A stretch of DNA of 64,000 nt from positions 42,773 through 106,772 of IMG/VR virus record IMGVR_UViG_3300048503_000032. One strand, 5' to 3'. The notes beneath the pieces are model-generated. The model had not been told where the DNA came from. It made no database searches and worked only from the letters and a program-made list of their open reading frames with translations. Source of the stretch: a virus. Its lineage: Duplodnaviria > Caudoviricetes. Below are positions 49,337 through 63,312 of this stretch, in pieces. A program made the position numbers and the translations under genes. Position 1 is the stretch's first letter; each line of letters begins with the position of its first letter.

Positions 49337-49567
49337 ATGACAACCGCAGATGTGCAAGAGTTGATTTCGAGGGGAGATTTTCACCACGCTACGCACCGGC
49401 CACAGCAGTTTGACAGCTTGTTCATCTACCGGAGAGACGATGACGGATTCCGTGGATACACCCTATTTGGCGGAGTTTCCAATCGCACAGACCCTACGAC
49501 GTTCGCTCAAGTATCAGAGATTGTGCGCCACACTGGGATTAGCGTGGGCGCATTCGGCAACGGGTAG
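49337..49567 (+). CDS. Hypothetical protein
   Basis: GAGGTG RBS. Confidence 0.65.
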   Translation: MTTADVQELISRGDFHHATHRPQQFDSLFIYRRDDDGFRGYTLFGGVSNRTDPTTFAQVSEIVRHTGISVGAFGNG

Positions 49568-49637
49568 CAGCCTAACAGAGTAGCACAGGAGGCAAATAAA
49601 TGACCGACATAGCAGCGATCAGGATGGGGAGGAAGTA

Positions 49638-50995: not shown

Positions 50996-51217
50996 TACAA
51001 ATCTGAAGTGAAGGGGTAATTCACATGCGTTATGTAAAGGTGCTGGTGCATCTATCTGCTTTAGAGATGGAACTTTGCGACGGGGATTGTGTGGTAGCGC
51101 GCGCCATGTTGTCTGGGCGGTATACTAACTCTGACGATGCGTTCGCGGAGATGCTTGCTTGGATTGAGCGCGGTGTTTTGCTATCGGATACTGCTTTGCA
51201 GTTGACACTGTAGTCGA

Positions 51218-52840
51218 GTGGTGTTCTACTTCGTCGGTATCCTATTTCGATTTCGAGGTTCGTCAATGAGCGTGACTGGCATCTCCCGTATGGTGGATTC
51301 GTGCAGCGACATGGTTCACAAGAAGGCAATCAAAACTTACCAGCATATTGCTCCGGAGAATAAGCGTTGGATCGACCTCGAAGACGTGATCCAAGAGGGT
51401 TTGATTAAGGCGTGGGAAACCGAGCAGTCTTACACGCAGCACTGGGCAGAGTCTGACGCACCGACTCATTTCAAGAGCAAGTTTTCGACCTACCTATTCC
51501 GTGGACTCGACATGCTGTTCTCTGGCCGGTACTCGATTCCGTTGAGCGCGCGTAAGCGGGTTACCAAGTTGGTCGAGTTGGATGCGCCGATCGGTGGCGA
51601 GGACGGCGCTTCCCACATCGATATCCCATCGCATAATGTATCGCCAGAGAGAATGTTTCAGGCTATCTCGGGTGTGGTGCAGGTCTGCTACGCTATTCCG
51701 CCGGCGGCGCTGTCGTTTCTGCTGGGCGTGATTGTCTCGGATGCGGGCAGGATTAGACGACGGACAGCGAATGACATAGCATGTATTCCAGATGCATGTT
51801 CCAGGTTTGGGGTCACTCGGTACGACTTAGAGTTGATCATGGGCGATCTGGAGTCGAAGAGCAGAGTGCTGGAGAGCGTGATGGCGGCAGATGCGAAGTT
51901 GGGCGAGGACGATGTCAAGGTGCTGGAGTGTGTGACGTGCCGGGGGATGTTCTCTCTGGGCGATGTCAGGACGGGCAATTACTCGGTGACCAGTCTTACC
52001 TGCCATGCATGTTTGAAGAAATTGTACGAAGAATCGGACAGCAGCTCTTGCTTTGGACGCATGAAAGTGGTATACAATAACAAGACGGCGACAGAGGGTT
52101 ACTCTGAAGCCGATACAGAATGCAGACTTCATTGTAGGGATCGTGCAGCATGTAGGAAATTCATCAAGGAAGGTAGGACGAATATGACACCTGAGAAAGT
52201 TGCCAATATGGAATTCGATCTGGAAGATGTAGACCTGAGCAACATCGAGGCTGCGGAACCCGTGGCCACCACAACCAAACCTGCGAAGAGCAGCAGCAAG
52301 AAGGCCGCAGCCAAGGCACCGGCGAAGACCGTAACCAAGGCAGTGAAGAAGGCGGAGCCGGTCAAGGCAGCGAAGAAAGCGGAAGCTCCCAAGGCCGATA
52401 AGACAGCAGTCAAGGCACCGGCGAAGGTGGCGACGAAGAAAGCGGCCAAGCCCGAGGGCGAGAAGCATGTGCGGACTGCCAAGTCCACGGCCAAGATCGA
52501 TCCGAAGGTGGCCAAGGCGCAGGGACTCATCAAGCTCGACGACCAGGGCCGCGACCTGCCGTTCAAGCAGGGATCAACGATGCGGTATTGTCTGGAGCAG
52601 GCGCTGGCTCCGGGCGGCGTGAAGGAGAAGGATCTGGAGAGGGAGCTGACCAAGCTCGGGTATTCGTATCCGTTGCAGCGGTCTGTCCTGATGTCCGGCA
52701 AGAGCGGCGACAGTTCGTTCAGACCCTACCCCAGCACGCATGTGTGGAAGGCTGAAGTGAAGGGCGACCGAATCATCGTGTCGGACGTTAAACGGATCGC
52801 TTTTTATCACAAGATGGCGCGCATTCAGTCTGCGAAGTAA
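51218..52840 (+). CDS. Sigma-factor region 2-like domain + Cys-rich domain + Lys/Ala-rich histone H1-like region (start uncertain; internal start likely at 52184)
   Basis: DLEDVIQEGLIKAW...KFSTY; CVTC, CHAC, CFG, CRLHC; KKAAAKAPAK repeats. Confidence 0.7.
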   Translation: MVFYFVGILFRFRGSSMSVTGISRMVDSCSDMVHKKAIKTYQHIAPENKRWIDLEDVIQEGLIKAWETEQSYTQHWAESDAPTHFKSKFSTYLFRGLDMLFSGRYSIPLSARKRVTKLVELDAPIGGEDGASHIDIPSHNVSPERMFQAISGVVQVCYAIPPAALSFLLGVIVSDAGRIRRRTANDIACIPDACSRFGVTRYDLELIMGDLESKSRVLESVMAADAKLGEDDVKVLECVTCRGMFSLGDVRTGNYSVTSLTCHACLKKLYEESDSSSCFGRMKVVYNNKTATEGYSEADTECRLHCRDRAACRKFIKEGRTNMTPEKVANMEFDLEDVDLSNIEAAEPVATTTKPAKSSSKKAAAKAPAKTVTKAVKKAEPVKAAKKAEAPKADKTAVKAPAKVATKKAAKPEGEKHVRTAKSTAKIDPKVAKAQGLIKLDDQGRDLPFKQGSTMRYCLEQALAPGGVKEKDLERELTKLGYSYPLQRSVLMSGKSGDSSFRPYPSTHVWKAEVKGDRIIVSDVKRIAFYHKMARIQSAK

Positions 52841-52866
52841 TCGGCCGGCAAGCTGGTTAGGTTGGC

Positions 52867-52901
52867 GAGGTCATCCTAGAGATGGGATGGCCTCACTTTT
52901 T
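52867..52901 (+). terminator. Intrinsic terminator insulating the tRNA array
   Basis: GAGGTCATCCT-agagat-GGGATGGCCTC-ACTTTTT. Confidence 0.85.
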
Positions 52902-52938
52902 ACTTGCAGGAATATCGAGTCTGTGGTGTACTCAATAA

Positions 52939-53014
52939 AGCGGCCGAGTGATGATGGCTTCACGCCAGTCTCATAAGCTGGAAATCGGCAGTTCGACTCT
53001 GCTGGCCGCTACCA
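52939..53014 (+). tRNA. tRNA-Met/Ile2 (CAT), upstream of attenuator 1
   Basis: AGCGGCC/GGCCGCT, CCAGT-CTCATAA-GCTGG, TTCGA, CCA. Confidence 0.88.
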
Positions 53015-53028
53015 TTAGGAGTACGGAA

Positions 53029-53112
53029 ATGAAGATGCAGTTATCCAGTTCGCGCTATCTCTCGTCACTCGATTGCCTGAGTGCGAGTCGGCGTGTTCTG
53101 GATCAGACTTAG
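53029..53112 (+). CDS. Leader peptide 1 MKMQLSSSRYLSSLDCLSASRRVLDQT
   Basis: AGGAG RBS; L/S/Y/D/C codons match block 1 tRNAs. Confidence 0.85.
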   Translation: MKMQLSSSRYLSSLDCLSASRRVLDQT

Positions 53113-53164
53113 CAAGAGATGATCTGAAGCACACCGACCCGCCAGATGGCGGGTTTTGTTGTTT
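53083..53164 (+). terminator. Attenuator 1: antiterminator 53083-53142 versus terminator 53136-53164
   Basis: GTCGGCGTGTTCTGGATCA pairs with TGATCTGAAGCACACCGAC; ACCCGCC-agat-GGCGGGT-TTTGTTGTTT. Confidence 0.85.
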
Positions 53165-53241
53165 GCGGGGATACGCAAATCGGCAAAGCGGGGATTCCTA
53201 AAAAGTCCTGTCTGCGGGTTCGAGGCCCGCTCCCCGTACCA
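53165..53241 (+). tRNA. tRNA-Leu (TAA), C33
   Basis: GGATT-CCTAAAA-AGTCC; CCA end. Confidence 0.8.
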
Positions 53242-53243
53242 GG

Positions 53244-53318
53244 GCACGACAAGACAATCGGATAGTCGGCAGACTGCAAATCTGCTCTTGTCCCGTTCGA
53301 CTCGGGAGTCGTGCTCCA
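53244..53318 (+). tRNA. tRNA-Cys (GCA)
   Basis: GCAGA-CTGCAAA-TCTGC; U73; CCA. Confidence 0.9.
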
Positions 53319-53336
53319 GTTCTTTGACAATTGATT

Positions 53337-53414
53337 GCGCTGGTGACGGGAATAGGAATACCTATCAGGTCGAGAGCCTGGTGATTGTGGGTTCGAGGCC
53401 CACCCAGCGCACCA
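53337..53414 (+). tRNA. tRNA-Leu (GAG), C33
   Basis: TCAGG-TCGAGAG-CCTGG; CCA. Confidence 0.85.
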
Positions 53415-53417
53415 TGT

Positions 53418-53494
53418 GCCGGTGTATGCAAATAGGCAAAGCAGCTTCGCTTAGAACGAAGTGTTTGGGGGTTCGATTCCCTTCACCGGTACCA
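53418..53494 (+). tRNA. tRNA-Leu (TAG)
   Basis: CTTCG-CTTAGAA-CGAAG; CCA. Confidence 0.9.
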
Positions 53495-53500
53495 AGTTTG

Positions 53501-53581
53501 GCCGATGTACGCAAACAGGCAAAGCGGCGAAGCTCAAAACTTCGTGATTGACTGTCGGTTCGATTCCGACCATCGGCACCA
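53501..53581 (+). tRNA. tRNA-Leu (CAA)
   Basis: CGAAG-CTCAAAA-CTTCG; CCA. Confidence 0.9.
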
Positions 53582-53586
53582 AGTAT

Positions 53587-53680
53587 GATGGGATGGCTGA
53601 GCGGCTGAAGGCTCTGGTTTGCTAAACCAGCGCACCTCTTTATCGGGGTGTCGTGAGTTCGAATCTCACTCTCATCGCCA
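53587..53680 (+). tRNA. tRNA-Ser (GCT)
   Basis: CTGGT-TTGCTAA-ACCAG; long variable arm; CCA. Confidence 0.93.
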
Positions 53681-53684
53681 GTTT

Positions 53685-53773
53685 GGAGGGTTGGCCGAGT
53701 GGCTGAAGGCACTAGTCCTGAAAACTAGAATACCGAGAGGTATCGCGGGTTCAAATCCACGCACCCTCCTCCA
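53685..53773 (+). tRNA. tRNA-Ser (TGA), C33
   Basis: CTAGT-CCTGAAA-ACTAG; long variable arm; CCA. Confidence 0.88.
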
Positions 53774-53777
53774 TTTC

Positions 53778-53869
53778 GCAAGCGAGGACAGATACGGTTG
53801 GCTGCACCTGACTGTAAATCAGGATCCTCTTCGAGGACATTGGGAGTTCGAATCTCTCCGCTTGCACCA
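53778..53869 (+). tRNA. tRNA-Tyr (GTA)
   Basis: CCTGA-CTGTAAA-TCAGG; long variable arm; CCA. Confidence 0.93.
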
Positions 53870-53873
53870 GTTT

Positions 53874-53947
53874 GGTTTCGTCGTTCAATGTAGGATGCTC
53901 CCTTGTCAGGGGATAAGATGCGGGTTCAAGTCCCGTCGAAACCGCCA
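53874..53947 (+). tRNA. tRNA-Asp (GTC)
   Basis: TCCC-TTGTCAG-GGGA; G73; CCA. Confidence 0.88.
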
Positions 53948-53959
53948 TAAAATTAGTTG

Positions 53960-53988
53960 TTGCATTTCAAGGGAACGTATGGGAAGCT
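53960..53988 (+). promoter_or_regulatory. Candidate promoter for tRNA block 2
   Basis: TTGCAT-17 nt-GAAGCT with TGn extension; weak -10. Confidence 0.45.
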
Positions 53989-53998
53989 AGGAATCGAT

Positions 53999-54070
53999 AT
54001 GAAGCATCTGGCGACAACGCGCGCGTTCCCAACCCAGGCACAACAGCCGGGTGGTAATCGTATGCGCTAG
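53999..54070 (+). CDS. Leader peptide 2 MKHLATTRAFPTQAQQPGGNRMR
   Basis: Codons match all 13 block 2 tRNAs; stop abuts antiterminator. Confidence 0.85.
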   Translation: MKHLATTRAFPTQAQQPGGNRMR

Positions 54071-54072
54071 TC

Positions 54073-54140
54073 GCTGGGGTTTTATGCGCGAGGATTCTCG
54101 CAGAACATACACCCTGGCCAACCAGCCAGGGATTTTTATT
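54073..54140 (+). terminator. Attenuator 2: antiterminator 54073-54118 versus terminator 54112-54140
   Basis: GCTGGGGT/ACCCTGGC outer stem, TATG/CATA, GCGAG/CTCGC; CCCTGGC-caacca-GCCAGGG-ATTTTTATT. Confidence 0.88.
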
Positions 54141-54163
54141 GCTCGGTATCTCAATTGATTTGA

Positions 54164-54250
54164 TGGGGTGTGCCCGGAACGGTATCGGCCTCGGCTGTTA
54201 ACCGAAGTGCTCAAAAGAGGATGGGGGTTCGACTCCCTCCGCCCCAGCCA
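54164..54250 (+). tRNA. tRNA-Asn (GTT), enlarged variable region
   Basis: TCGG-CTGTTAA-CCGA; G73; CCA. Confidence 0.85.
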
Positions 54251-54263
54251 GTATAATGGGAGG

Positions 54264-54854
54264 ATGAGAAAAGATATCCAAGCAGCGGGTACTAAGGCTT
54301 CGGCGGCGTTATCAAGACAGAAAGCTATTGATCTGTATTCCGAGAGTCCGAATCGATGCTTACAGTGTTTAGCTGTGATTGAGTTGCGTGGACGTAGGTC
54401 TTCTATTGTTAGGCGACAGAAGTTTTGCTCACATGGATGTGCTGGCAGTTACAACAACAGTCGCTTTCCGAAGCGTAAGCCGGAAGGTCAGTGTGAAGGA
54501 TGTGGGACACCGATAAGGGCGTGCTTGAAGTATTGCAGTCATAAGTGCAGGGCAAAATATCGTAGGCATAGAACGCGAGAAGAAGTGGCGGCTGGGAACG
54601 TGCAGGCTGTGATCGGTTGGAGGACGCGAACTAAGGATAAGGCGGTTGCATACAAGGGAGGAAAATGTTGCCGATGCGGTTACGACAGATGTGTCAGGGC
54701 ATTGGATTTTCACCATGTAGATCCTTCCAAGAAAGATTTTGCGGTAAGCAGGGTTTCAAAGTCGTGGGCGGTAATTAAGGCGGAGTTGGATAAGTGTATT
54801 TTGCTGTGCTCCAACTGTCACCGAGAGTTTCACGACGGGATGTGGAAGATGTAA
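54264..54854 (+). CDS. HNH endonuclease with Zn-finger repeats (free-standing homing type)
   Basis: CCRCG...ALDFHH...CILLCSNCHREFH; TATAAT 6 nt before ATG. Confidence 0.9.
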   Translation: MRKDIQAAGTKASAALSRQKAIDLYSESPNRCLQCLAVIELRGRRSSIVRRQKFCSHGCAGSYNNSRFPKRKPEGQCEGCGTPIRACLKYCSHKCRAKYRRHRTREEVAAGNVQAVIGWRTRTKDKAVAYKGGKCCRCGYDRCVRALDFHHVDPSKKDFAVSRVSKSWAVIKAELDKCILLCSNCHREFHDGMWKM

Positions 54855-54862
54855 GAGATTGT

Positions 54863-54937
54863 TCCCCGTTCGTTCAAATGGGAGGACGCAATCCTCTGAA
54901 GATTGTCATGGTGGTTCGAGTCCATCGCGGGGAACCA
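54863..54937 (+). tRNA. tRNA-Gln (CTG)
   Basis: CAATC-CTCTGAA-GATTG; CCA. Confidence 0.9.
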
Positions 54938-54944
54938 GAATTAT

Positions 54945-55054
54945 CGGGAGCTAGTGTAAACGGCCTGAGCCAGAGCCCTACGGGACGGAATGCTCAAAGC
55001 ACGGAGCGCATGGGGCGCTCTAGTGCGAGACTGGCAGCCTCGCAATCCCGACCA
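54945..55054 (+). ncRNA. Aberrant tRNA-like RNA (Pro-like acceptor, expanded D region, no TTC loop)
   Basis: CGGGA/TCCCG-A-CCA; GAGCG-CATGGGG-CGCTC; TGCGAG/CTCGCA stem. Confidence 0.6.
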
Positions 55055-55061
55055 AGTTTGA

Positions 55062-55135
55062 TCGCTAGTCGTTCAACGGTAGGACGGATGGTGTTGACCC
55101 ATCAGATCAGGGTTCGATCCCTTGCTGGCGATCCA
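55062..55135 (+). tRNA. tRNA-Gln (TTG), G33
   Basis: GATGG-TGTTGAC-CCATC; CCA. Confidence 0.82.
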
Positions 55136-55146
55136 GAAGTTGTAGT

Positions 55147-55220
55147 GCGGAATCGGTGTGACGGTCGCATGGAATCTTGCCGAGATTCGGGCGAGGGTTC
55201 GACTCCCTCATTCCGCTCCA
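55147..55220 (+). tRNA. tRNA-Gly (GCC)
   Basis: GAATC-TTGCCGA-GATTC; U73; CCA. Confidence 0.9.
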
Positions 55221-55226
55221 GTTTGT

Positions 55227-55301
55227 GCCGGTGTAGCTTAGATGATAGAGCGTCGCACTCGTAACGCGATGACCCCGGTTTGATTCCGGGCACTGGCTCC
55301 A
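55227..55301 (+). tRNA. tRNA-Thr (CGT)
   Basis: TCGCA-CTCGTAA-CGCGA; CCA. Confidence 0.88.
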
Positions 55302-55312
55302 GAAAGGTAAGG

Positions 55313-55870
55313 ATGATGAGAAATGTGATGCGCAGTCCGGTGCTGGTGCTGAATGCGTCATACGAGCCGTTGCACATCTGTGCTGCGCGTCGTGCTCTTA
55401 CGTTGATCGTGAAGGACTGCGCTGTCATTCAGCATGACACTGGTCGGCAGGTTCATGTCGGCATAATGTTTCCTTCAGTGATTCGGCTGAAGCGTTACGC
55501 GAGGGTTCCGCATCGCGCTCAGGAGATGACGAGAAAGAACATCCTCATGCGCGACGACTATCGGTGCCAGTATTGCGGAGAGGTGTTCTCAGGTGCGGAG
55601 TTGACGCTTGATCACATACTTCCGCGGGCACAGGGCGGTTTATCGACGTGGGAGAATCTGGTGGCTGCGTGCGGTGAGTGTAACCGGCGCAAGGGCAACC
55701 AGACTCCCGAAGAGGCGGGTATGCCTTTACTGAGGCGTCCCAGGCCGGTCACGCTGCACACCGCTCGCGGGATCTTGCGGGCACAGGCCAGTGACGAGAA
55801 GGTGTGGCAGAAGTATCTGTTTTATGACAACGCAGGTTGCCAGGAAGGAGTCACGTTTGGGCCGTCGTAG
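55313..55870 (+). CDS. HNH endonuclease (McrA-like, VLVLNASYEPL family)
   Basis: RDDYRCQYCG...TLDHILP...GG..TWENLVAACGECNRRK. Confidence 0.92.
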   Translation: MMRNVMRSPVLVLNASYEPLHICAARRALTLIVKDCAVIQHDTGRQVHVGIMFPSVIRLKRYARVPHRAQEMTRKNILMRDDYRCQYCGEVFSGAELTLDHILPRAQGGLSTWENLVAACGECNRRKGNQTPEEAGMPLLRRPRPVTLHTARGILRAQASDEKVWQKYLFYDNAGCQEGVTFGPS

Positions 55871-55936
55871 CTCGTATGGAAGAGCACTCGCTTGGTAAGC
55901 GAGAGGTAGCGAGTTCGACTCTCGCAGGCGGCTCCA
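55861..55936 (+). tRNA. tRNA-Thr (GGT)
   Basis: CTCGC-TTGGTAA-GCGAG; CCA. Confidence 0.9.
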
Positions 55937-55940
55937 GTTT

Positions 55941-56012
55941 GCCGGTATCGCATGGTGCTGAGTCTCATTTGTAACGAGACTCTTACGGGTTCGATTCCTG
56001 TTGCCGGCCCCA
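55941..56012 (+). tRNA. tRNA-Thr (TGT), reduced D arm
   Basis: TCTCA-TTTGTAA-CGAGA; CCA. Confidence 0.78.
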
Positions 56013-56019
56013 AAGATGT

Positions 56020-56095
56020 GGAGAGGCTGGCAGAGTGATTATGCGCCGGTCTGTGGAGCCGGTTTACATCGGTTTGATCCCGATGCCTCTCCCCA
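56020..56095 (+). tRNA. tRNA-His (GTG)
   Basis: G-1:C73; CCGGT-CTGTGGA-GCCGG; CCA. Confidence 0.9.
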
Positions 56096-56100
56096 ACAAG

Positions 56101-56170
56101 TCCGGAGACGTAGGGTTCGATGCCTACTCGTCATAGAAATGTGGCGGTCGTCTAGTGGCAGGATACCGGG
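56101..56170 (+). ncRNA. Circularly permuted tRNA-like element (3' half precedes 5' half)
   Basis: TCCGG-agac-T arm-TCGTCAT, 6-nt linker, GTGGCGG-D arm-CCGGG; halves pair in acceptor and anticodon stems. Confidence 0.6.
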
Positions 56171-56186
56171 GCTATGAATACAATTC

Positions 56187-56266
56187 GGGGCGTAGGACTA
56201 CATGCGGTGGTCGCTTCTCTTGCAAAGAAGATATTCAGGTGGGTTGGATTCCCGCACGCTCCACCA
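56187..56266 (+). tRNA. tRNA-Ala (TGC)
   Basis: G3:U70; CTTCT-CTTGCAA-AGAAG; CCA. Confidence 0.88.
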
Positions 56267-56272
56267 AGTTTT

Positions 56273-56348
56273 GCTGCTTGCGTAGGTCTGGTGATTACGC
56301 TGGTCTGAAAATCCAGAGAACGCAGTTCGATTCTGCGAGGCGGCACCA
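56273..56348 (+). tRNA. tRNA-Phe (GAA)
   Basis: CTGGT-CTGAAAA-TCCAG; CCA. Confidence 0.88.
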
Positions 56349-56353
56349 AGTAT

Positions 56354-56427
56354 CGGGGTAGGGTGTGACGACCGCATCCTAGTTTTGGGAACTAGTGGAT
56401 CGGGTTTGACTCCCGGTGCCCCGACCA
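56354..56427 (+). tRNA. tRNA-Pro (TGG)
   Basis: CTAGT-TTTGGGA-ACTAG; C1:G72, A73. Confidence 0.88.
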
Positions 56428-56431
56428 TTTA

Positions 56432-56507
56432 CGGAGAGTGGCCAAGAGGAAAGGCTCCAGTTTCGGGAACTGGGAATTCGTGAGTTCGAGTCTCACCTCT
56501 CCGACCA
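56432..56507 (+). tRNA. tRNA-Pro (CGG)
   Basis: CCAGT-TTCGGGA-ACTGG; CCA. Confidence 0.92.
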
Positions 56508-56513
56508 GAGTTT

Positions 56514-56589
56514 GTCCCTTTGGTGAAATGGAATATCACACGAAGCTACGAACTTCGAGTTGCGGGTCTGAGTCCCGCGGGGGGCACCA
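56514..56589 (+). tRNA. tRNA-Arg (ACG)
   Basis: CGAAG-CTACGAA-CTTCG; CCA. Confidence 0.88.
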
Positions 56590-56598
56590 TTTTAGAAG

Positions 56599-56628
56599 TT
56601 GCATCCCACGCTGGAGAGATGGTATGGT
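56599..56628 (+). promoter_or_regulatory. Candidate promoter for tRNA block 3
   Basis: TTGCAT-18 nt-TATGGT with TGn; embedded in an inverted repeat. Confidence 0.55.
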
Positions 56629-56694
56629 TTCTCCAGTGCAACAAAAGCATGAATGCTCCGGCCCGGAGGGTAAGTTGGGCACGAATTGAAATCC

Positions 56695-56769
56695 ATGAGA
56701 CAGACCTTCAAACACGAGATAACCATTAGGCGCGCTGAAAAGCGGGTCATGTGGGGGATCGTGTTTTAA
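56695..56769 (+). CDS. Leader peptide 3 MRQTFKHEITIRRAEKRVMWGIVF (may start at TTG 56686)
   Basis: Codons match all 13 block 3 tRNAs; TAA overlaps first base of antiterminator. Confidence 0.85.
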   Translation: MRQTFKHEITIRRAEKRVMWGIVF

Positions 56770-56825
56770 GGGGTCTGCGCTGTGGTACCACCAGACCCCT
56801 CGCTCAGTGCGAGGGGCTTTTTATT
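56769..56825 (+). terminator. Attenuator 3: antiterminator 56769-56800 versus terminator 56796-56825
   Basis: AGGGGTCTG/CAGACCCCT perfect 9 bp; CCCCTCGC-tcagt-GCGAGGGG-CTTTTTATT. Confidence 0.9.
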
Positions 56826-56845
56826 GTTCTTTGAGATGATGATGT

Positions 56846-56915
56846 GCCGGGTGATCTGAGATCAGGTGAGCCTCCAAATCTCGCCAGCTAGGTTCGATTC
56901 CTAGACCTGGTGCCA
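56846..56915 (+). tRNA. tRNA-Trp (CCA), reduced D arm
   Basis: loop CTCCAAA; CTAGG-TTCGATT-CCTAG; G73; CCA. Confidence 0.8.
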
Positions 56916-56916
56916 C

Positions 56917-56988
56917 GGCTCGTACCTCTGGCGAGGACGCAGGACTCATAACCCTGTTCACTGAATTCGATTTTCAGGCGAGCCACCA
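56917..56988 (+). tRNA. tRNA-Met/Ile2 (CAT)
   Basis: CAGGA-CTCATAA-CCCTG; CCA. Confidence 0.8.
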
Positions 56989-56989
56989 T

Positions 56990-57084
56990 AGAGGACAGCA
57001 CCGACGTGCGGCGGAGTCTTATAAACTCTGGAAAGGCTGCGGACTGCGGCTAACGGGAGGGATTGACACCCTCGTCCTCTACCA
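56990..57084 (+). tRNA. tRNA-Ile (TAT) with long variable arm
   Basis: AGAGGAC/GTCCTCT; GGAGT-CTTATAA-ACTCT; atypical T loop; CCA. Confidence 0.75.
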
Positions 57085-57085
57085 T

Positions 57086-57162
57086 GCCTCGATAACTCAA
57101 TCGGTTTAGAGTCCTGCCTCTTAAGCAGCGAGACCCAGGTTCGATTCCTGGTCGGGGCACCA
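57086..57162 (+). tRNA. tRNA-Lys (CTT)
   Basis: CTGC-CTCTTAA-GCAG; CCA. Confidence 0.92.
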
Positions 57163-57168
57163 AGTTTC

Positions 57169-57245
57169 GGAAGCGTAACTCAACGGGTTCAGAGTCTCGC
57201 CTTTTAAGCGATGAGACGGGGGTTCGAGTCCTCCCGCTTCCACCA
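57169..57245 (+). tRNA. tRNA-Lys (TTT)
   Basis: TCGC-CTTTTAA-GCGA; CCA. Confidence 0.92.
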
Positions 57246-57246
57246 T

Positions 57247-57321
57247 GCAGCCGTCGTCCAACGTATAGGGCATCGATCTTCTAAATCGAGGACGTGAGTT
57301 AGACTCTCACCGGCTGCTCCA
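57247..57321 (+). tRNA. tRNA-Arg (TCT)
   Basis: TCGAT-CTTCTAA-ATCGA; CCA. Confidence 0.88.
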
Positions 57322-57327
57322 TTTTAT

Positions 57328-57401
57328 GGCGCGTTCGTTCAACGGCAGGACATCGGTTTTTCACATCGAGAACAAGAGTTCGACCCTCTTACGCGCTACC
57401 A
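57328..57401 (+). tRNA. tRNA-Glu (TTC)
   Basis: TCGGT-TTTTCAC-ATCGA; CCA. Confidence 0.9.
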
Positions 57402-57407
57402 AGTTTT

Positions 57408-57483
57408 GCCGTGATCCGCCAAGCGGCTAGGCGACTGGATTCTCACTCCAGCAATCCGAGTTCAAGCCTCGGTCACGGTACCA
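57408..57483 (+). tRNA. tRNA-Glu (CTC)
   Basis: CTGGA-TTCTCAC-TCCAG; CCA. Confidence 0.9.
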
Positions 57484-57485
57484 GT

Positions 57486-57561
57486 CACTCTGCGGTGAAA
57501 TTGGATATCACGGTGCTCTCCGAAGGCGCAGTTTCGAGTTCGAGTCTCGACGGGGTGACCA
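57486..57561 (+). tRNA. tRNA-Arg (CCG)
   Basis: GTGCT-CTCCGAA-GGCGC; CCA. Confidence 0.88.
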
Positions 57562-57570
57562 TCAAGTTTC

Positions 57571-57645
57571 GCTCCCTTCGTTCAGTGGACAGGACGATGA
57601 CCTCCTAAGTCGTAGACGGCAGTTCGACTCTGCCAGGGAGTACCA
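57571..57645 (+). tRNA. tRNA-Arg (CCT)
   Basis: ATGAC-CTCCTAA-GTCGT; CCA. Confidence 0.92.
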
Positions 57646-57649
57646 GATT

Positions 57650-57727
57650 GCAAGCGTGGGCCAGCGGCGACGCCGCCTCTCCTACAAAGAGGAATTACCG
57701 GAGGTTCGAGTCCTCCCGCTTGCACCA
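57650..57727 (+). tRNA. tRNA-Val (TAC), C33
   Basis: CCTCT-CCTACAA-AGAGG; CCA. Confidence 0.85.
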
Positions 57728-57790
57728 GTTCGTTCCCGTCATCCAGCGGCTAGGATGATCGCCCGATTAGCTTATGGTATATTCGAGTTT

Positions 57791-58267
57791 ATGAAGAGGA
57801 AGCCTTGTTGCCGCTGTGGGTCTACTAAGAATGTGATGGTCAAGGGGCATGCTTACTGCCGTGTGTGCAATAACGCATACAGTAAGAAATATTACTATGC
57901 TGATCGTGAGGGACGCCTCGCAAAGATTGCGGAGTATGTGCGGAAGTTGCGTCTTCGTAGGAAAGCGTTGATTAACGACTTGAAGAGTCGTCCGTGTGTT
58001 GATTGCGGTAGGACTTTCCCGGCTGTTTGTATGGATTTTGATCATCTAGACGGTACGAATAAGCAGGGTTGTGTCAGTTCTATGGTGAACAATACTGGAG
58101 CTTCTCTAAAGCGTGTGATGGCAGAGATAGCCAAATGCGATTTGGTTTGTGCGAATTGCCATCGTATTCGAACGCATCATCGTACGGTAGCTCAACAGGT
58201 AGAGCATGCGCTTGATAAGCGCAAGGTAGTTGGTTCAAGACCAACCCGTACGACCAAGATTAGATGA
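57791..58267 (+). CDS. HNH endonuclease (free-standing homing type)
   Basis: CVDCG...MDFDH...CDLVCANCHRIRT; 3' end runs through tRNA-Ile. Confidence 0.88.
   Translation: MKRKPCCRCGSTKNVMVKGHAYCRVCNNAYSKKYYYADREGRLAKIAEYVRKLRLRRKALINDLKSRPCVDCGRTFPAVCMDFDHLDGTNKQGCVSSMVNNTGASLKRVMAEIAKCDLVCANCHRIRTHHRTVAQQVEHALDKRKVVGSRPTRTTKIR
58181..58256 (+). tRNA. tRNA-Ile (GAT)
   Basis: TGCGC-TTGATAA-GCGCA; CCA. Confidence 0.92.
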
Positions 58268-58299
58268 GGGAGTTCGAGTCTGAGCGGGAACACCAATAT

Positions 58300-58374
58300 G
58301 CGGGCATAGCCAAGTGGAAAGGCATGAGGTTTCCACCCTCACATGCGCCGGTTCAATCCCGGCTGCTCGCTCCA
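58300..58374 (+). tRNA. tRNA-Gly (TCC)
   Basis: TGAGG-TTTCCAC-CCTCA; U73; CCA. Confidence 0.92.
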
Positions 58375-58429
58375 TATTCCCTCTTGACGGCCATCAGGTC
58401 GTCTATAGTGGTGTCAGGAGGGTAAAACG

Positions 58430-58978
58430 ATGCGCTACGTTCGTCTACACGGGGTTGTTGGGGCTGTGGTGGTGGGTTTCCTTGCCGGCGGGCTGGCGCT
58501 GGCTCAGCAGGCGGTCTACGGGCATTCTCAGGGTAAGTTTCTACCAGATCCGAAGGTCACCCCTGGGGCGGTCGACCCGAGCCTGGTGGCGGATCTGACG
58601 AAGGCTCCACACATGGTGGCCGGCGTCGAGCATAATATCTGTGCCGCGGACTTCAGGACTCCGCCGTTTCGGGTGGCCACCAAGAGCCAGAAAATCAAGA
58701 CGGCGGTCTGTAAGGCTTACGGCATCCTGAATGGATGCCCTGGGTCACAATGGGAGTTGGATGACATCATCCCGATTGAGGTTGGCGGGCAGAATATACA
58801 GATCAATCTTTGGCCGCAGAACATAGGCGAGGCTCGGGTCAAGGATCATCAGGTGGAGGACTTGCTTGGAGGCCCGAAGGGTTTGGTCTGCCGCGGGAAG
58901 ATCAGTCTGTCGGATGCGCAGTCGTGCATCGTGAATGATTGGACGGCTTGCGCTGTTCGGATCGCCGCGCTGAAGTAA
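58430..58978 (+). CDS. Signal-peptide-bearing HNH-like protein
   Basis: Hydrophobic N-terminus ending ALA; LPDPKVTPGA, ELDDIIPIEVGG..NLWPQ (first His replaced by Asp). Confidence 0.7.
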   Translation: MRYVRLHGVVGAVVVGFLAGGLALAQQAVYGHSQGKFLPDPKVTPGAVDPSLVADLTKAPHMVAGVEHNICAADFRTPPFRVATKSQKIKTAVCKAYGILNGCPGSQWELDDIIPIEVGGQNIQINLWPQNIGEARVKDHQVEDLLGGPKGLVCRGKISLSDAQSCIVNDWTACAVRIAALK

Positions 58979-59009
58979 GGACGTAGCGGAGATCATCTAT
59001 AATCACGTT

Positions 59010-60077
59010 ATGGCTACTCAACAGGCAAAAGTACCAGCGAAGAATTTTAAGAGTCTTATCGGTGCGATCCTGAAGTTTCCGCCGTCGGCATCGGTGTCGG
59101 CGAGTGAGGTCGTGCATTTCGCCGTCAACAACGGACGCGCTCGAGCATCGATCTCAGGTGTCGTAGTCAGTACGGCCACAGTGATCGGGATGCATGAGGT
59201 GGAGGCGTTCACGGCGGACTACCGATCGCTTCGAGGTTTCGCGGCGACTATCCCAGCGGATGGTTCAGTCGATATTATGGTCAGCGCGAAAGACAAGCAG
59301 GTGCGCTTGGTGTGCGGAGAGCAGAAACTGAATCTGTCATACACGCTGGGATCTGTGTTGGCGAAGCCGAAGGTCGCTGAGCCATTTTTCACGGTGACTG
59401 CGGAGACGGCTGTTGCGATCAGGTGGTTGGCTGGTGTCGCAGAGAAAGACGAGAGCAAGCTCGACATGTGCTGCGTTTATCTCAGTGGCGGCAGGGCGAT
59501 GGCCGGCAACCAGAAGTGTATCGGTGTAGCACATACTGCGGGTCTGCCGCAGGAGTCGATTCCGTTGCCGTTGAATCTCTGCGCGGTGCTGGAGTCTGGG
59601 GACAAGCTGTCGAAGGCCGAGGGTGGTTTGATCTTGACCAGCGGCTGCGGTGTCTCGCAGGTTCCTTACCTGGTGTCTTCGATCAAGTTCCCGGTGGCTG
59701 TGGTGGAGCGGATGGAGGCGTCGGCTGGGGCTACCTATGCTAGATGCAAGGCGCGTGACATGGTGTCGGTATTCACGGAGTCGGCGGATTGTGTGGCGAG
59801 GATTCCTAAGGCTCAGGCGTTCCTGGTGGTGACATTCAAAGACGGCAAGATAGGAGTCAGGGCGCAGAGTCAGACGGCTGTCTTCCGTACTGTATTGGAC
59901 GGTGAGGTCAAGAAGGACGGCGACCTTTGGCTTGAGCTGCCGGAAGCAGAAGAGGCTCTGAAGGCGTTCGGTGACGGGGATGTGAGTTGCAGGAAGCTCT
60001 CACCGAAGGGCGAAGCTGCGCTTGAGGGTTCGGAGGCGAAGGTATTTTTTGCGCCTGTAAGACAGGCGGGGGCATAG
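59010..60077 (+). CDS. Putative DNA sliding clamp (beta-like)
   Basis: 355 aa with repeating alpha/beta pattern resembling DnaN; weak. Confidence 0.55.
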   Translation: MATQQAKVPAKNFKSLIGAILKFPPSASVSASEVVHFAVNNGRARASISGVVVSTATVIGMHEVEAFTADYRSLRGFAATIPADGSVDIMVSAKDKQVRLVCGEQKLNLSYTLGSVLAKPKVAEPFFTVTAETAVAIRWLAGVAEKDESKLDMCCVYLSGGRAMAGNQKCIGVAHTAGLPQESIPLPLNLCAVLESGDKLSKAEGGLILTSGCGVSQVPYLVSSIKFPVAVVERMEASAGATYARCKARDMVSVFTESADCVARIPKAQAFLVVTFKDGKIGVRAQSQTAVFRTVLDGEVKKDGDLWLELPEAEEALKAFGDGDVSCRKLSPKGEAALEGSEAKVFFAPVRQAGA

Positions 60078-60079
60078 GC

Positions 60080-61075
60080 ATGAAGAGGATTCTGATAACA
60101 GGCGGCGCTGGCTTTGTGGGACATCATTTGGTCGAACATCTGCTTAAGAATACGGACTGGCAGGTTGTGGTGATCGACCGCCTGAACTACGCGTCAGGCG
60201 GATTTGATCGTCTGCGCGACATCAATGCGTTCGATGACAAGCGGGTGACGACTTTGTCGGCTCCGGTGGATCGGCCAATCGCTGAGGGCTTGGAGCAGGA
60301 GATCGGTCAGGTGGACTATATCGTACATCTGGCGGCTGAGTCGCATGTGGACAGGTCGATTGTGAATCCGCTTCCGTTTGTCGAGTCGAATGTGCTTGGT
60401 ACATTCTATGTGCTGGAGTTTGCACGTAGACAGAAAGCGCTCGACAAGATGATCATGTTTTCGACGGACGAGGTGTACGGGCCGGCTCCGGATGGGGTGT
60501 TTTATACTGAGCTGGATCGTCACTCTCCAGCGAACCCGTACGCTGCCAGCAAGAGCGCATCCGAGATGCTGTGCTTGGCGTGGGCCAACACTTACAAGTT
60601 GCAGGTGATCATTACCAATACCATGAATGTGTACGGTGAACGGCAACACCCTGAGAAGTTCGTTCCTTCGACTGTCAGGAAGCTGGTGGATGGAGAACGT
60701 GTGATAATCCACGGGACTCAGGATCTCCGGCGTGCGGGGAGTCGTTTCTATATCCATGCGCGCAACGTGGCGGATGCTGTGGTGTTCCTGCTGCTCAGGG
60801 ACACGCCAGCGCGTGAAGCATGGAATATCGTAGGCGAGCGCGAGGTGGATAATCTGACGCTTGCTCAGACGATTGCGGACATTCTCGGTCGCAAGCTGCA
60901 TTATGAGATTGTGGATTTTCATTCGCAGCGGCCTGGACATGACTTACGGTACGCTCTTGACGGTACGAAGATGGCCCAGGCTGGTTGGAAACCACCAGTG
61001 AATTTTGAGGAGAGCTTGTGTCGGACTGTGACTTGGATGGTCACGAATCAGCACAAGAAGTGGCTTTGGTTCTAG
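60080..61075 (+). CDS. rfbB: dTDP-glucose 4,6-dehydratase-like NAD-dependent enzyme
   Basis: ITGGAGFVG, HLAAESHVDRSI, STDEVYG, PYAASK, RPGHDLRYA. Confidence 0.92.
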   Translation: MKRILITGGAGFVGHHLVEHLLKNTDWQVVVIDRLNYASGGFDRLRDINAFDDKRVTTLSAPVDRPIAEGLEQEIGQVDYIVHLAAESHVDRSIVNPLPFVESNVLGTFYVLEFARRQKALDKMIMFSTDEVYGPAPDGVFYTELDRHSPANPYAASKSASEMLCLAWANTYKLQVIITNTMNVYGERQHPEKFVPSTVRKLVDGERVIIHGTQDLRRAGSRFYIHARNVADAVVFLLLRDTPAREAWNIVGEREVDNLTLAQTIADILGRKLHYEIVDFHSQRPGHDLRYALDGTKMAQAGWKPPVNFEESLCRTVTWMVTNQHKKWLWF

Positions 61076-61196
61076 GATTTCTTCGGAGCAGGCTTTGGGC
61101 GCACGGCTGCGGAGGCGCTAAGGTTCTTGATAATCCGTCGCTGGCTCCAGAAGCTCATGATCTAGACATAACATGATGCGACGCTGATCGCAAGGG

Positions 61197-62006
61197 TTGT
61201 ATGTGAATATTTGGATCGTTTGCACGAGCAGCATGAATTGGAGGCCAGCCCTGTGGGGTATCTTTGGCGGCAAGTACAAAATCCGGTATCAGCTGGCTGA
61301 GTACATCAACAGTCTCTCGCCGCGGGTGTACCTCGAGGCATTCTGTGGGTACGCATGGGTGGGGGAGCGGGTGCGATGTCCACAGCGTCATTTCTCGGAC
61401 TTGAATGAGAATGTAGTGATGATGTGGCAGGCTCTACTGAAGGGGTGGCAACCTCCGACCGCAGTCTCAGAGGAAGAGTATGTCGTGTTGAAGAATGAGA
61501 CCAAGGCATCGGCTCTGCGCGGCTTTGTAGGCACGACTTGTGCGTTCGGCGGCGGTTTCTTCAACACATATGCTCGGGATAAAAAGGACAAGGATAAAAA
61601 CTTCGCAGCGGCGGGAGCCAGACAGATGTTGCGCCGGGTACATGGTCTGCGCGGATCTATCTTCACGTTCAGGGACTATCGGACTGCGCTGGATTCGGTG
61701 GATGCGGATGTGGTGTACCTCGATCCGCCGTATAGGGGTACAAGTGAGTATGTGGGGGTAGAGGCTTTCGATAGTGATTTGTTTTGGAACGAAATTAGGA
61801 AGCGGTCGGACGGCAGCAGGCGCATTCTCGTTTCAGAATATCAGGCTCCGTCAGACTTCACGGTTGTGATGACGACGTATTCGCGTATGGGGCTGAGTAC
61901 CAAGGCTGAGGTTGGATTACAGAAGGAACTGCGCGAGGAGCGGGTATTCGAGTATCAGCCGCCGAAGGGCCGACGGATGGTCAGCTTCGCGTCGCTGTTG
62001 GATTGA
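61197..62006 (+). CDS. D12-class DNA adenine methyltransferase (start uncertain)
   Basis: GGKY, YLEAFCG, VYLDPPY. Confidence 0.88.
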   Translation: MYVNIWIVCTSSMNWRPALWGIFGGKYKIRYQLAEYINSLSPRVYLEAFCGYAWVGERVRCPQRHFSDLNENVVMMWQALLKGWQPPTAVSEEEYVVLKNETKASALRGFVGTTCAFGGGFFNTYARDKKDKDKNFAAAGARQMLRRVHGLRGSIFTFRDYRTALDSVDADVVYLDPPYRGTSEYVGVEAFDSDLFWNEIRKRSDGSRRILVSEYQAPSDFTVVMTTYSRMGLSTKAEVGLQKELREERVFEYQPPKGRRMVSFASLLD

Positions 62007-62208
62007 GGTTATCGATGGGCTGGTGGAAGAGACGGTATGAGCGAGTGTCGGATGAGAAGCACGATCAGATCGAGGTCGCGTCATCGTGCGTTATATTCAT
62101 GGCGTATTATCTGCTGTACTTGGCTATGTTCGGGGCGATGACGATTTCAGTGGAGATTACAAATCAAGACGGCAGTAAGCACACGGCTCGTTTCAATGGG
62201 TGGATGTG

Positions 62209-63312
62209 ATGGCTGGTGCTTATTACAACGAATTCGATCCGTTTGCTGCTGAGTGGATACGCCAGCTCATTAAGAAAAAGTTGATTGCGGATGGAGACGT
62301 AGATGACAGAAGCATTAAGGAAGTCTCGGCAGCGGATCTCAGAGGATACCGACAGTGTCACTTTTTCGCCGGTATCGGGGTTTGGCAGTTCGCACTTCGC
62401 GGAGCTGGATGGAGCGACACTAGAGAAGTCTGGACAGGCAGTTGTCCCTGTCAAAGTTTTTCACACGCAGGCCAGCGTAAAGGCTTCGAAGACTCAAGGA
62501 ACCTCTGGCCGGAGTGGATACGACTCATCAGAGAGTGTGCGCCTCCAGTCCTCTTTGGAGAGCAGGTTAGTGCAGCGGTTAAGCACGGCTGGCTCGACAT
62601 TGTTCAGACTGATTTGGAAACAGAGGGCTACGCCGTCGGGAAGGCGGTACTTGGAGCGTGCAGCGTTGGAGCCCCTCACATCAGACAGCGGCTTTACTTC
62701 GTGGCCAAGTCCGAGAGCGCAGGAACCCGGCAAGACGAGCGAAGGGTACGGACTGGGGTTGAATCCAGCGGCGCAGTTGACGGCTTGGCCTACTCCAAAA
62801 ACCAGCGATTGTTCGGGCGGCGGACAGGCGAAGCGTTCGATGGAACGAAGCAATCTAAACGACTACGCGATGCTGGCGAGCTGGCCAACACCACGCGCTC
62901 AGAACAACAGAAAAACTCAGCTGAGAAAGGACGTAGTCGGAGGGCACAAGTCCAATCTGGAGGAGGTCGTGTGCCTGGTCGGATGGACAACGCCAACGGC
63001 TCGGGATTGGAAGGACACGCCGGGGATGGCGACGACAGGAATCAATCCGGATGGTTCGGTGAGGAATCGGTTGGATCGCTTGGCTCCGCAGGCTCTGCTC
63101 ACCAGAACAGATTTCCCGGCCCGACTAACGGCTTCTGGAGAGATGTTGACTGGCTCAGCTGCACGGATGGAAAGTGGAGGCCAGTTGAACCCGGCACATT
63201 CCCGTTGGTTGCAAGGGCTACCTCCAGAATGGGACGTTTGCGCGGGTTTGGTAATGCTCTCAACGCGGAAACAGCCAAAGCATTCATAGCAGCTTGCATG
63301 GAGATTCTCTGA
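62209..63312 (+). CDS. C5 cytosine methyltransferase, alpha polypeptide
   Basis: FFAGIG, GSCPCQSFS, GEQV, PHIRQR, motif X RLRGFGNA. Confidence 0.9.
   Translation: MAGAYYNEFDPFAAEWIRQLIKKKLIADGDVDDRSIKEVSAADLRGYRQCHFFAGIGVWQFALRGAGWSDTREVWTGSCPCQSFSHAGQRKGFEDSRNLWPEWIRLIRECAPPVLFGEQVSAAVKHGWLDIVQTDLETEGYAVGKAVLGACSVGAPHIRQRLYFVAKSESAGTRQDERRVRTGVESSGAVDGLAYSKNQRLFGRRTGEAFDGTKQSKRLRDAGELANTTRSEQQKNSAEKGRSRRAQVQSGGGRVPGRMDNANGSGLEGHAGDGDDRNQSGWFGEESVGSLGSAGSAHQNRFPGPTNGFWRDVDWLSCTDGKWRPVEPGTFPLVARATSRMGRLRGFGNALNAETAKAFIAACMEIL
62303..63289 (+). CDS. Overlapping alternative-frame ORF: methyltransferase beta polypeptide (start uncertain)
   Basis: SWPSP/AWPTP/SWPTP/GWTTP repeats and motif IX-like QLNPAHSRWLQGLP. 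Confidence 0.75.
   Translation: MTEALRKSRQRISEDTDSVTFSPVSGFGSSHFAELDGATLEKSGQAVVPVKVFHTQASVKASKTQGTSGRSGYDSSESVRLQSSLESRLVQRLSTAGSTLFRLIWKQRATPSGRRYLERAALEPLTSDSGFTSWPSPRAQEPGKTSEGYGLGLNPAAQLTAWPTPKTSDCSGGGQAKRSMERSNLNDYAMLASWPTPRAQNNRKTQLRKDVVGGHKSNLEEVVCLVGWTTPTARDWKDTPGMATTGINPDGSVRNRLDRLAPQALLTRTDFPARLTASGEMLTGSAARMESGGQLNPAHSRWLQGLPPEWDVCAGLVMLSTRKQPKHS

Follow-up and report, generated by a model that had tools for sequence, protein, structure and literature searches.

A putative multivalent leader-peptide attenuator ahead of the last tRNA block of an uncultured phage

The last 13 of the 36 transfer RNA (tRNA) genes of an uncultured phage appear to be gated by a multivalent, ribosome-mediated leader-peptide transcription attenuator, a reading of the sequence to which a probability of roughly 0.68 is assigned here. 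The element, called unit 3, lies in a 64-kb stretch at the right-hand end of an IMG/VR virus record of 106.8 kb (IMGVR_UViG_3300048503_000032, positions 42,773 to 106,772; genome given as 107-kb and estimated to be 91% complete). This whole stretch of 64,000 nucleotides (nt) is referred to as the window, and its + strand carries nearly all of its genes. The attenuator reading is supported by the match between the codons of a short leader and the tRNAs of its own block, by the three-fold replication of the design within the array, by competing RNA helices, and by comparable units in Caulobacter phage phiCbK. An earlier annotation of the DNA, made from its letters alone, had proposed a ribosome-sensed attenuator before a block of Trp, Met, Ile, Lys, Arg, Glu, Val and Gly tRNAs, and the in-silico tests run here support such an element.

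Codon content of the leaders and the tRNA blocks

The tRNA array spans 52939-58374 and provides tRNAs for all 20 amino acids. Its 36 genes comprise 30 that were detected by ARAGORN with default settings, Thr(UGU), Ala(UGC) and Pro(UGG), which were added with relaxed settings, and three more cloverleaves with the anticodons CCA, CAU and UAU at 56846-57085. The latter escaped ARAGORN and scored under the Rfam threshold, and each is the minimum-energy fold of its sequence and ends in CCA. The only strong terminators inside the array, at 53136, 54112 and 56796, divide it into three blocks of 9, 13 and 13 tRNAs, preceded by one lone tRNA(CAU). Including their U-tracts, the terminators end 0-22 nt upstream of the first tRNA of the following block, an interval into which no promoter fits, and thus the transcripts of any block must read through its terminator. 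Block 3 (56846-58374, + strand; delimited by ARAGORN, Rfam and cloverleaf folds), which unit 3 would regulate, begins with the tRNA-like genes CCA, CAU and UAU, followed by Lys(CUU), Lys(UUU), Arg(UCU), Glu(UUC) and Glu(CUC), and continues with Arg(CCG), Arg(CCU), Val(UAC), an HNH-like open reading frame (ORF), Ile(GAU) and Gly(UCC).

Leader ORF 3, taken from the list of ORFs, runs on the + strand from TTG 56686 (27 codons) or ATG 56695 (24 codons) to the stop codon TAA at 56767-56769, and its peptide counted from the ATG is MRQTFKHEITIRRAEKRVMWGIVF. Codons were matched to anticodons by standard wobble rules, with the 23 post-start codons of leader 3 counted from the ATG, and the null for the codon tests consisted of random codons drawn at the phage's own usage. 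Block-3 tRNAs read 14/23 codons of the leader and all of them (13/13) are covered, as compared with 0/23 codons for block 1 and 7/23 for block 2. The probability of at least 14/23 hits is 2.4e-3, that of 13/13 coverage is 2e-4, and the joint P is 3e-5; when only canonical tRNAs are considered, 11/23 codons match and 10/10 tRNAs are covered (joint P = 8e-4). The absence of block-1 codons is mildly unusual in itself (P = 0.002). Watson-Crick cognate codons occur for 11/13 block-3 tRNAs, a result with P = 5e-6 under random codons that weakens to P = 0.022 once the peptide is fixed, which argues that part of the signal is at the level of the codon (AGA, AGG, CGG, AAA, AAG, GAA, GAG and ATA).

Coverage of 13/13 tRNAs had also been claimed in the initial annotation, and it stands by virtue of AGA, AGG, CGG, AAA, AAG, GAA, GAG, ATA, ATT/ATC, GTG, ATG, TGG and GGG; the GTC that had been counted with GTG for Val does not, since it is not a standard match for Val(UAC). 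The same annotation had described eight non-matching codons, all of block-2 types, as a hint of cross-wiring or past reshuffling. Block-2 types were found to make up 7/9 of the non-matching codons, a share that chance would give with P = 0.11, and cross-wiring of leader 3 to block 2 was therefore rejected. RNA pairing accounts better for these codons, as CAG ACC TTC (AAA) CAC GA form arm 1 of the switch described below and the final TTT lies in arm 2.

The same arrangement is found twice more upstream. Sister unit 1 (53029-53164, + strand) combines the Shine-Dalgarno sequence AGGAG with a leader of 27 codons, an antiterminator, and a terminator which abuts tRNA-Leu(UAA). Its leader (53029-53112) is rich in Leu, Ser, Tyr, Asp and Cys codons and matches block 1 in 15/26 codons and 8/9 tRNAs (P = 2e-4 for hits and 2e-2 for coverage). 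Sister unit 2 (53999-54141, + strand) has a 23-codon leader, an antiterminator beginning 3 nt past the stop codon TAG, and a terminator ending 22 nt before tRNA-Asn. Leader 2 (53999-54070) matches block 2 in 19/22 codons and 13/13 tRNAs (P = 4e-6 for hits and 3e-4 for coverage) and block 1 in a single codon (1/22); it carries ACA, ACG and ACC for three Thr tRNAs, CCA and CCG for two Pro tRNAs, and CAA and CAG for two Gln tRNAs. The 3x3 table of leaders against blocks is thus dominated by its diagonal, with 0-7 codons in the off-diagonal cells. Among the 1813 short ORFs of the window (start-stop combinations of 15-45 codons) that were tested against the three blocks, leader 2 ranked first and leader 1 second, and leader 3 was the sole enriched ORF with full block-3 coverage. 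Only two other ORFs of this set cover all of block 3, and neither is enriched in block-3 codons or located near the array. The three leaders share with one another, and with the tRNAs, only chance 9-12-mers, which indicates that the units are not recent copies of one another; an origin of the leaders as recent duplicates or decayed tRNAs was rejected on the same grounds.

A working leader-peptide switch need not, however, report the shortage of specific tRNAs. It could instead follow the general status of translation, such as ribosome supply, amino-acid starvation and charged-tRNA levels, or the timing of infection, whereby all blocks would respond together. Each tRNA is sampled by only 1-3, mostly non-tandem codons, leader 3 includes seven block-2 codons and nine codons of leader 1 belong to blocks 2 and 3, all of which would suit a general signal, as would the retention of leader 1 in a relative (see below) where most of the matching tRNAs are absent. 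The units may also lie in series on one transcript, no clear promoters having been found in scans. A general signal nevertheless leaves unexplained why the codon sets are block-specific, with 0/23 and 1/22 block-1 codons in leaders 3 and 2, and why individual isoacceptors are sampled by their cognate codons, both in leader 3 (the eight codons from AGA to ATA listed above) and in leader 2 (ACA, ACG, ACC, CCA, CCG, CAA and CAG). This alternative is considered unlikely.

Competing helices and the proposed switch

The ORF, the overlap of its stop codon with the antiterminator, and the overlap of the antiterminator with the terminator, all of which had been claimed in the initial annotation, are present at the coordinates given here. 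The sequence AGGGGTCTG occupies 56769-56777, its first A being the last base of the stop TAA, and its perfect complement CAGACCCCT lies at 56792-56800, where it shares 5 nt with the 5' arm of the terminator. The terminator stem, CCCCTCGC/GCGAGGGG, joins 56796-56803 with 56809-56816 across the loop TCAGT and is followed by CTTTTTATTGTTCTTT. This intrinsic terminator (56796-56832 including the U-tract, + strand; from a terminator scan and energy calculation) has an 8-bp stem with 7 GC pairs and a 5-nt loop, with an energy of -17.7 kcal/mol, and no terminator-like site from 51 to 61 kb scores higher. The first tRNA-like gene of block 3 (56846) begins 13 nt past the U-tract. The antiterminator hairpin 2:3 (56769-56800, + strand) combines 9 perfect bp with an inner 3-bp stem at about -17.6 kcal/mol, and the two hairpins are mutually exclusive via the shared positions 56796-56800.

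The other arms are defined by the helices of the minimum-energy fold. RNA arm 1 (56701-56717, + strand; codons 3-8, CAGACCUU.AAACACGA) nearly duplicates arm 3 and has arm 2 as its partner; RNA arm 2 (56759-56777, + strand), comprising the last codons, the stop codon and AGGGGUCUG (56769-56777), can pair with either arm 1 or arm 3. In the minimum-energy fold of the full-length RNA, arm 1 is paired with arm 2 and the terminator is formed. A fold restricted to the RNA up to the terminator loop shows arm 2 joined to arm 3 instead, and this pairing sequesters 5 nt of the terminator 5' arm. Equilibrium folding was dropped as a test of the switch, because the terminator always wins in the full-length RNA. 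A ribosome footprint was masked codon by codon and the transcript was folded to the terminator loop, a procedure that addresses geometry only and not kinetics. With the ribosomal A site anywhere on codons 1-23, the antiterminator forms; codon 24 and the stop codon are the only positions at which it disappears, and the only ones at which arm 2 is masked. The placement of the stop codon thus has the consequence that a terminating ribosome would mask the 5' arm of the antiterminator.

Units 1 and 2 have the same four-arm layout, with predicted energies for antiterminator versus terminator of -23.3 versus -15.2 kcal/mol in unit 1 and -20.4 versus -14.2 kcal/mol in unit 2. The upstream sequence complements the terminator arm better than dinucleotide shuffles do, with P = 0.001, 0.057 and 0.045 for units 1, 2 and 3, respectively. 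The same hairpins could also be read as plain intrinsic terminators, or partial insulators between tRNA sub-operons, with the leader ORF as a chance frame. In line with such an account, the leader ATG lacks a Shine-Dalgarno sequence, no relatives show conservation of the frame, and GC-rich arms easily find partial complements, the shuffle P of unit 3 being only 0.045. It would, however, call for the same coincidence three times, with each leader matching its own block (joint P = 3e-5 for leader 3, P = 4e-6 for leader 2 and P = 2e-4 for leader 1), and the stop codon adjoins the antiterminator arm in both units 2 and 3. Moreover, a constitutive terminator that ends 0-22 nt before a block of 13 tRNAs would merely silence that block. 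The plain-terminator account is therefore regarded as quite improbable.

Under the attenuator reading, RNA polymerase would arrive at leader 3 after transcribing tRNA genes upstream or after starting at the weak promoter-like stretch 56599-56628, and a ribosome would translate the ORF of 24-27 codons close behind it. When decoding is fast, the ribosome at the TAA would cover 56769-56777 and block the antiterminator, whereupon the hairpin at 56796-56816 would fold and transcription would end in the U-tract ahead of the first tRNA. A stall at a codon whose tRNA is scarce, by contrast, would leave arm 2 free to pair with the emerging arm 3; the terminator would be blocked and the polymerase would continue into the tRNA genes which read those very codons. 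The codons sensed in this manner would be AGA, AGG and CGG (Arg), AAA and AAG (Lys), GAA and GAG (Glu), ATA, ATT and ATC (Ile), as well as ATG, TGG, GTG and GGG. The new tRNAs may then relieve the stall, closing a negative feedback loop. Translation of the leader ORF, the efficiency of termination, the response to stalling and the cause of the shortage are points that we infer; candidate causes include a mismatch with the host tRNA pool, decay of host tRNAs during infection, and the tRNA-cleaving nucleases of host defence.

A wider and more tentative proposal, against which the odds are judged to lie somewhat, can also be made: the three leaders may form a codon-indexed, three-channel sensor, and tRNA supply may serve as an inducible counter-defence. 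An anticodon nuclease, or the decay of host tRNAs, would remove for example Lys, Arg or Glu tRNAs, ribosomes would stall on leader 3, and only the block with the nuclease-resistant replacement tRNAs would then be transcribed. Replacement of host tRNAs by phage tRNAs after cleavage by anticodon nucleases, PrrC and PARIS AriB among them, is described (PMC10264068; PMC11464382).

Relatives, objections and known systems

A blastn search of 56500-57100 against 50,697 phage records returned no homologues of unit 3, and one of 56840-57730 against phage records returned only single generic tRNA matches. In IMG/VR, DNA patterns built on the switch and on leader 1, whether exact or gapped, had 0 matches, and the neighbouring proteins, used as single queries, had none either. 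A profile of the sigma-like protein encoded upstream of the array recovered 3 IMG/VR and 10 metagenome loci, of which only one, L005, carries tRNAs. The profile of a 182-aa ORF downstream of the array recovered 26 IMG/VR loci, none of them with a tRNA array; a 95%-identical copy of this ORF is found on a 2.5-kb contig, a relative seen as protein only. The more distant relatives, including a complete genome of 118.9 kb, have no tRNAs. The array is a lineage-specific insertion between the sigma-like gene and a conserved downstream gene.

L005 (metagenome contig Ga0182018_10007760) is a closer relative, with a nucleotide identity of ~80-87%, and it bears at 3633-4100 a mini-array of four tRNAs in the order tRNA(CAU), leader 1 with its switch, Leu(UAA), Ile(GAU) and Gly(UCC). 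Peat and soil samples are the source of both L005 and the present contig. Identity rises to ~96-97% from the U-tract of the sigma-gene terminator through tRNA(CAU), leader 1 and its terminator, as compared with ~80% in the flanking genes. The stem of the sigma-like gene terminator (52867-52894, versus L005:3560-3590) has accumulated many differences and still forms a hairpin. Since the U-tract and the sequence downstream of it are nearly identical while the stem has diverged, the boundary of high conservation lies exactly at the start of the tRNA module. In L005, leader 1 carries two substitutions and an additional whole codon, TTG, and the changes downstream of it fall in loops or turn an A-U into a G-U pair, so that pairing is preserved; the pattern fits a leader 1 that is constrained and probably translated. 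The Leu(UAA) of L005 is most like the Leu(UAG) of the present phage, with a one-base change in the anticodon.

The comparison also raises the possibility that the leader-terminator units evolved in a donor array, arrived together with the tRNA module and now regulate nothing. The array is, after all, specific to this lineage and missing from the distant relatives, leader 1 is kept in L005 without its tRNAs, and the ORFs in the blocks that resemble HNH homing endonucleases point to ongoing rearrangement. A relic would not be expected, however, to have all three leaders matched to the current content of their blocks, with 13/13 coverage twice, nor to keep its ORFs, stop codons and helices intact, and leader 1 is far better conserved than the neighbouring genes. 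This origin is deemed very improbable as an explanation of the present units.

Several observations weigh against the attenuator reading itself. As no homologue of unit 3 was retrieved, its frame and helices are without comparative support. Leader 1 is nearly unchanged in L005, yet only Leu, Ile and Gly tRNAs stand behind it there and most of the tRNAs that it lists are absent; the simplest account of this mismatch would be a recent deletion. The codon-level excess of leader 3 beyond its peptide is modest (P = 0.02), 3/13 block-3 tRNAs are non-canonical, and sensitivity may be low, since each tRNA is sampled by 1-3 codons that are mostly not in tandem. As the full-length RNA at equilibrium always forms the terminator, a behaviour shared with classical attenuators such as that of trp, the switch must be kinetic. 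Without a ribosome, moreover, the truncated RNA already prefers the 2:3 pairing, so that the default state in the absence of translation is not predictable from folding.

The initiation of translation weighs in the same direction. ATG 56695 has no Shine-Dalgarno sequence, with an anti-Shine-Dalgarno duplex of -2.4 kcal/mol, as compared with -10.0 kcal/mol for TTG 56675 and -6.1 kcal/mol for the in-frame TTG 56686, which lies 16 nt past GGAGG; the corresponding energies for the sister leaders 1 and 2 are -6.8 and -4.2 kcal/mol. The strong GGAGGG (56665-56670), identified by its anti-Shine-Dalgarno energy, is spaced not for the leader ATG but for a 4-codon mini-ORF, TTG GGC ACG AAT TGA (together 56665-56689, + strand), which runs from TTG 56675 to TGA 56687-56689. 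The TGA of the mini-ORF overlaps the leader TTG 56686 (TTGA) and precedes ATG 56695 by 5 nt, an arrangement that could allow coupled re-initiation into leader 3. Given that the ATG has no Shine-Dalgarno sequence, initiation at leader 3 requires either such coupling, the far-spaced TTG 56686, or a start independent of a Shine-Dalgarno sequence. Coupled re-initiation or initiation independent of a Shine-Dalgarno sequence is plausible, given that such a sequence is likewise missing from roughly a quarter of the long ORFs of the phage.

Further support for the attenuator reading comes from Caulobacter phage phiCbK (JX100813), in which annotated rho-independent terminators stand directly before tRNA blocks. 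Its gp083, annotated as a 45-aa hypothetical protein (region 49540-49769 of JX100813.1), has codons for 10/10 tRNAs of the block that follows its terminator, and 23/44 of its codons match that block (P = 2e-4) as against 1/44 for the next block. The next annotated terminator is preceded by an unannotated 32-codon ORF (region 51341-51502), which has codons for 9/9 tRNAs of its block and matches that block in 11/31 codons (P = 0.035). The likeness consists in a codon-matched ORF and an annotated terminator before a tRNA block, and this coverage of the blocks behind the terminators suggests that the design has a second occurrence in a cultured phage unrelated to this one. The phiCbK units and unit 3 have no sequence homology, and the resemblance is accordingly either analogous or highly diverged. 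The near-complete set of 36 tRNAs for 20 amino acids in three indexed blocks belongs to the present phage and not to phiCbK.

A cmscan search of 50000-64000 at E <= 1 matched none of the amino-acid operon leader families (Trp, His, Leu, Thr, Phe), and an assignment of unit 3 to the T-box (RF00230) or to another known Rfam leader was rejected on the same result. Multivalent leader-peptide attenuators are known from ilvGMEDA and thr, beside the trp, his, leu and phe leaders (Rfam RF00506, RF00512-RF00514, RF01859). Attenuators of the ilv, thr and trp type share with unit 3 a short ORF containing the sensed codons, competing 1:2, 2:3 and 3:4 helices, an intrinsic terminator before the regulated genes, and a stop codon positioned so that a terminating ribosome blocks the antiterminator; in ilv and thr, in addition, one leader senses several amino acids. 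They differ in that they regulate biosynthetic enzymes, whereas unit 3 would regulate tRNA genes, and its output would thus directly replenish what is sensed. Unlike these leaders, unit 3 is encoded by a phage, represents 13 isoacceptors for 8 amino acids mostly by single codons and not by tandem runs, and has no sequence or covariance-model similarity to them.

In the T-box, too, tRNA status is sensed and an intrinsic terminator upstream of translation-related genes is controlled via an antiterminator. The T-box, however, binds one uncharged tRNA via a specifier codon and the T-box sequence, without translation, while unit 3 is too short for such an element and carries its signal in an ORF that covers many tRNAs. 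A riboswitch of this kind, binding tRNA or a protein, is one form of the broader idea that unit 3 is a translation-independent element, others being a role in RNA processing or stability, a small RNA between tRNA blocks, or a gene for a small protein. The 241-nt spacer is indeed unusually structured (z = -4.2), and it contains extra hairpins at 56598-56680 that have no explained role. No Rfam family, the T-box included, was matched at E <= 1, though, and these accounts leave unexplained the block-specific codons of three unrelated ORFs, so that they are held to be the least probable of the alternatives.

A cellular counterpart is offered by the cryptic long tRNA array of Anabaena, which is ordinarily silent and becomes active under translational stress (PMC8421152). 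It resembles the present array in that accessory tRNAs are switched on when translation is impaired, and differs in that it is not of phage origin and in that the text of the paper does not contain the words attenuator, leader ORF or terminator (PMC8421152). The papers on counter-defence tRNAs, in the parts available here, concern the tRNAs themselves and describe no inducible, codon-sensed transcription (PMC10264068; PMC11464382). No published account of leader-peptide control of phage tRNA genes was found in literature searches. Phage tRNA genes are usually treated as constitutive codon-usage helpers or as decoys against tRNA-cleaving defences. The new aspects of the arrangement would be that tRNA genes are the regulated product and that codons are indexed one per isoacceptor.

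If the attenuator reading is correct, the phage would gauge decoding speed codon by codon and switch on only the tRNA block that is needed, so that the classic logic of attenuation would operate with tRNAs as both signal and product. This would explain why terminators split tRNA arrays into blocks. It would also add a regulatory layer to the tRNA arms race, perhaps a general and so far undescribed one in the conflict between phage and host, and would yield small natural sensors that report how available each individual tRNA is. The present array, with 36 tRNAs for 20 amino acids in three blocks, each listed by its own leader, would be among the cleanest examples; as its source phage is uncultured, phiCbK and Caulobacter offer a cultured system where the idea is testable.

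The surroundings of unit 3 and of the array

Between tRNA-Arg(ACG) and leader 3 lies a promoter-like stretch (56599-56628, + strand), read from the sequence as TTGCAT, an 18-nt spacer and TGgTATGGT; it is a weak candidate and was not flagged by a consensus promoter scan. The pattern TTGCA-N(10-20)-GTATGG occurs only twice in the 64 kb, at 53960-53982 and 56599-56627, a short distance upstream of leaders 2 and 3. It was chosen post hoc, and two matches were reached in 3/100 shuffles. The TTGCAT...GTATGG motif could be a promoter or a processing signal.

A sigma-70-like gene (51218-52840) stands directly upstream of the tRNA array, and its homologues carry PF04542; the phage's use of an RNA polymerase of the host type counts in favour of the attenuator reading. 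Portal, helicases, primase and exonuclease are among the PHROG matches in the window.

Within the array, default detection misses four tRNA-like genes: CCA, CAU, UAU and Thr(UGU). The CCA and CAU genes (56846-57085) and Thr(UGU) (55941-56012) have a mismatched 31-39 pair, resulting in 9-nt anticodon loops; in the UAU gene, the variable arm is long and the T-loop odd. It has been proposed that phage tRNAs evade anticodon nucleases by way of altered anticodon loops (PMC10264068). The blocks are interrupted by three ORFs, at 54168-54854, 55280-55870 and 57656-58267, which look like homing endonucleases resident in the array. Of these, one matches PF14279 and PF01844, both HNH endonuclease families, and the remaining two are rich in Cys, with predicted frames that run into neighbouring tRNA genes.

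The same record also encodes a circularly permuted transfer-messenger RNA (tmRNA) at C1:15503-15875, ~27 kb before the start of the window, with a 27-residue tag ending in AA (ARAGORN) and a match to Rfam RF04321 at 84.5 bits. Together with the near-complete tRNA set, the tmRNA suggests a heavy investment in sustaining translation, and its permuted form is a hint of an alphaproteobacterial, betaproteobacterial or cyanobacterial host. Upstream of the sigma-like gene, a 256-aa ORF (49638-50408) is composed nearly entirely of pentapeptide-like repeats (A/D-N-L-R/W-G/D), and across this interval all three forward frames, as well as reverse frames, are open.

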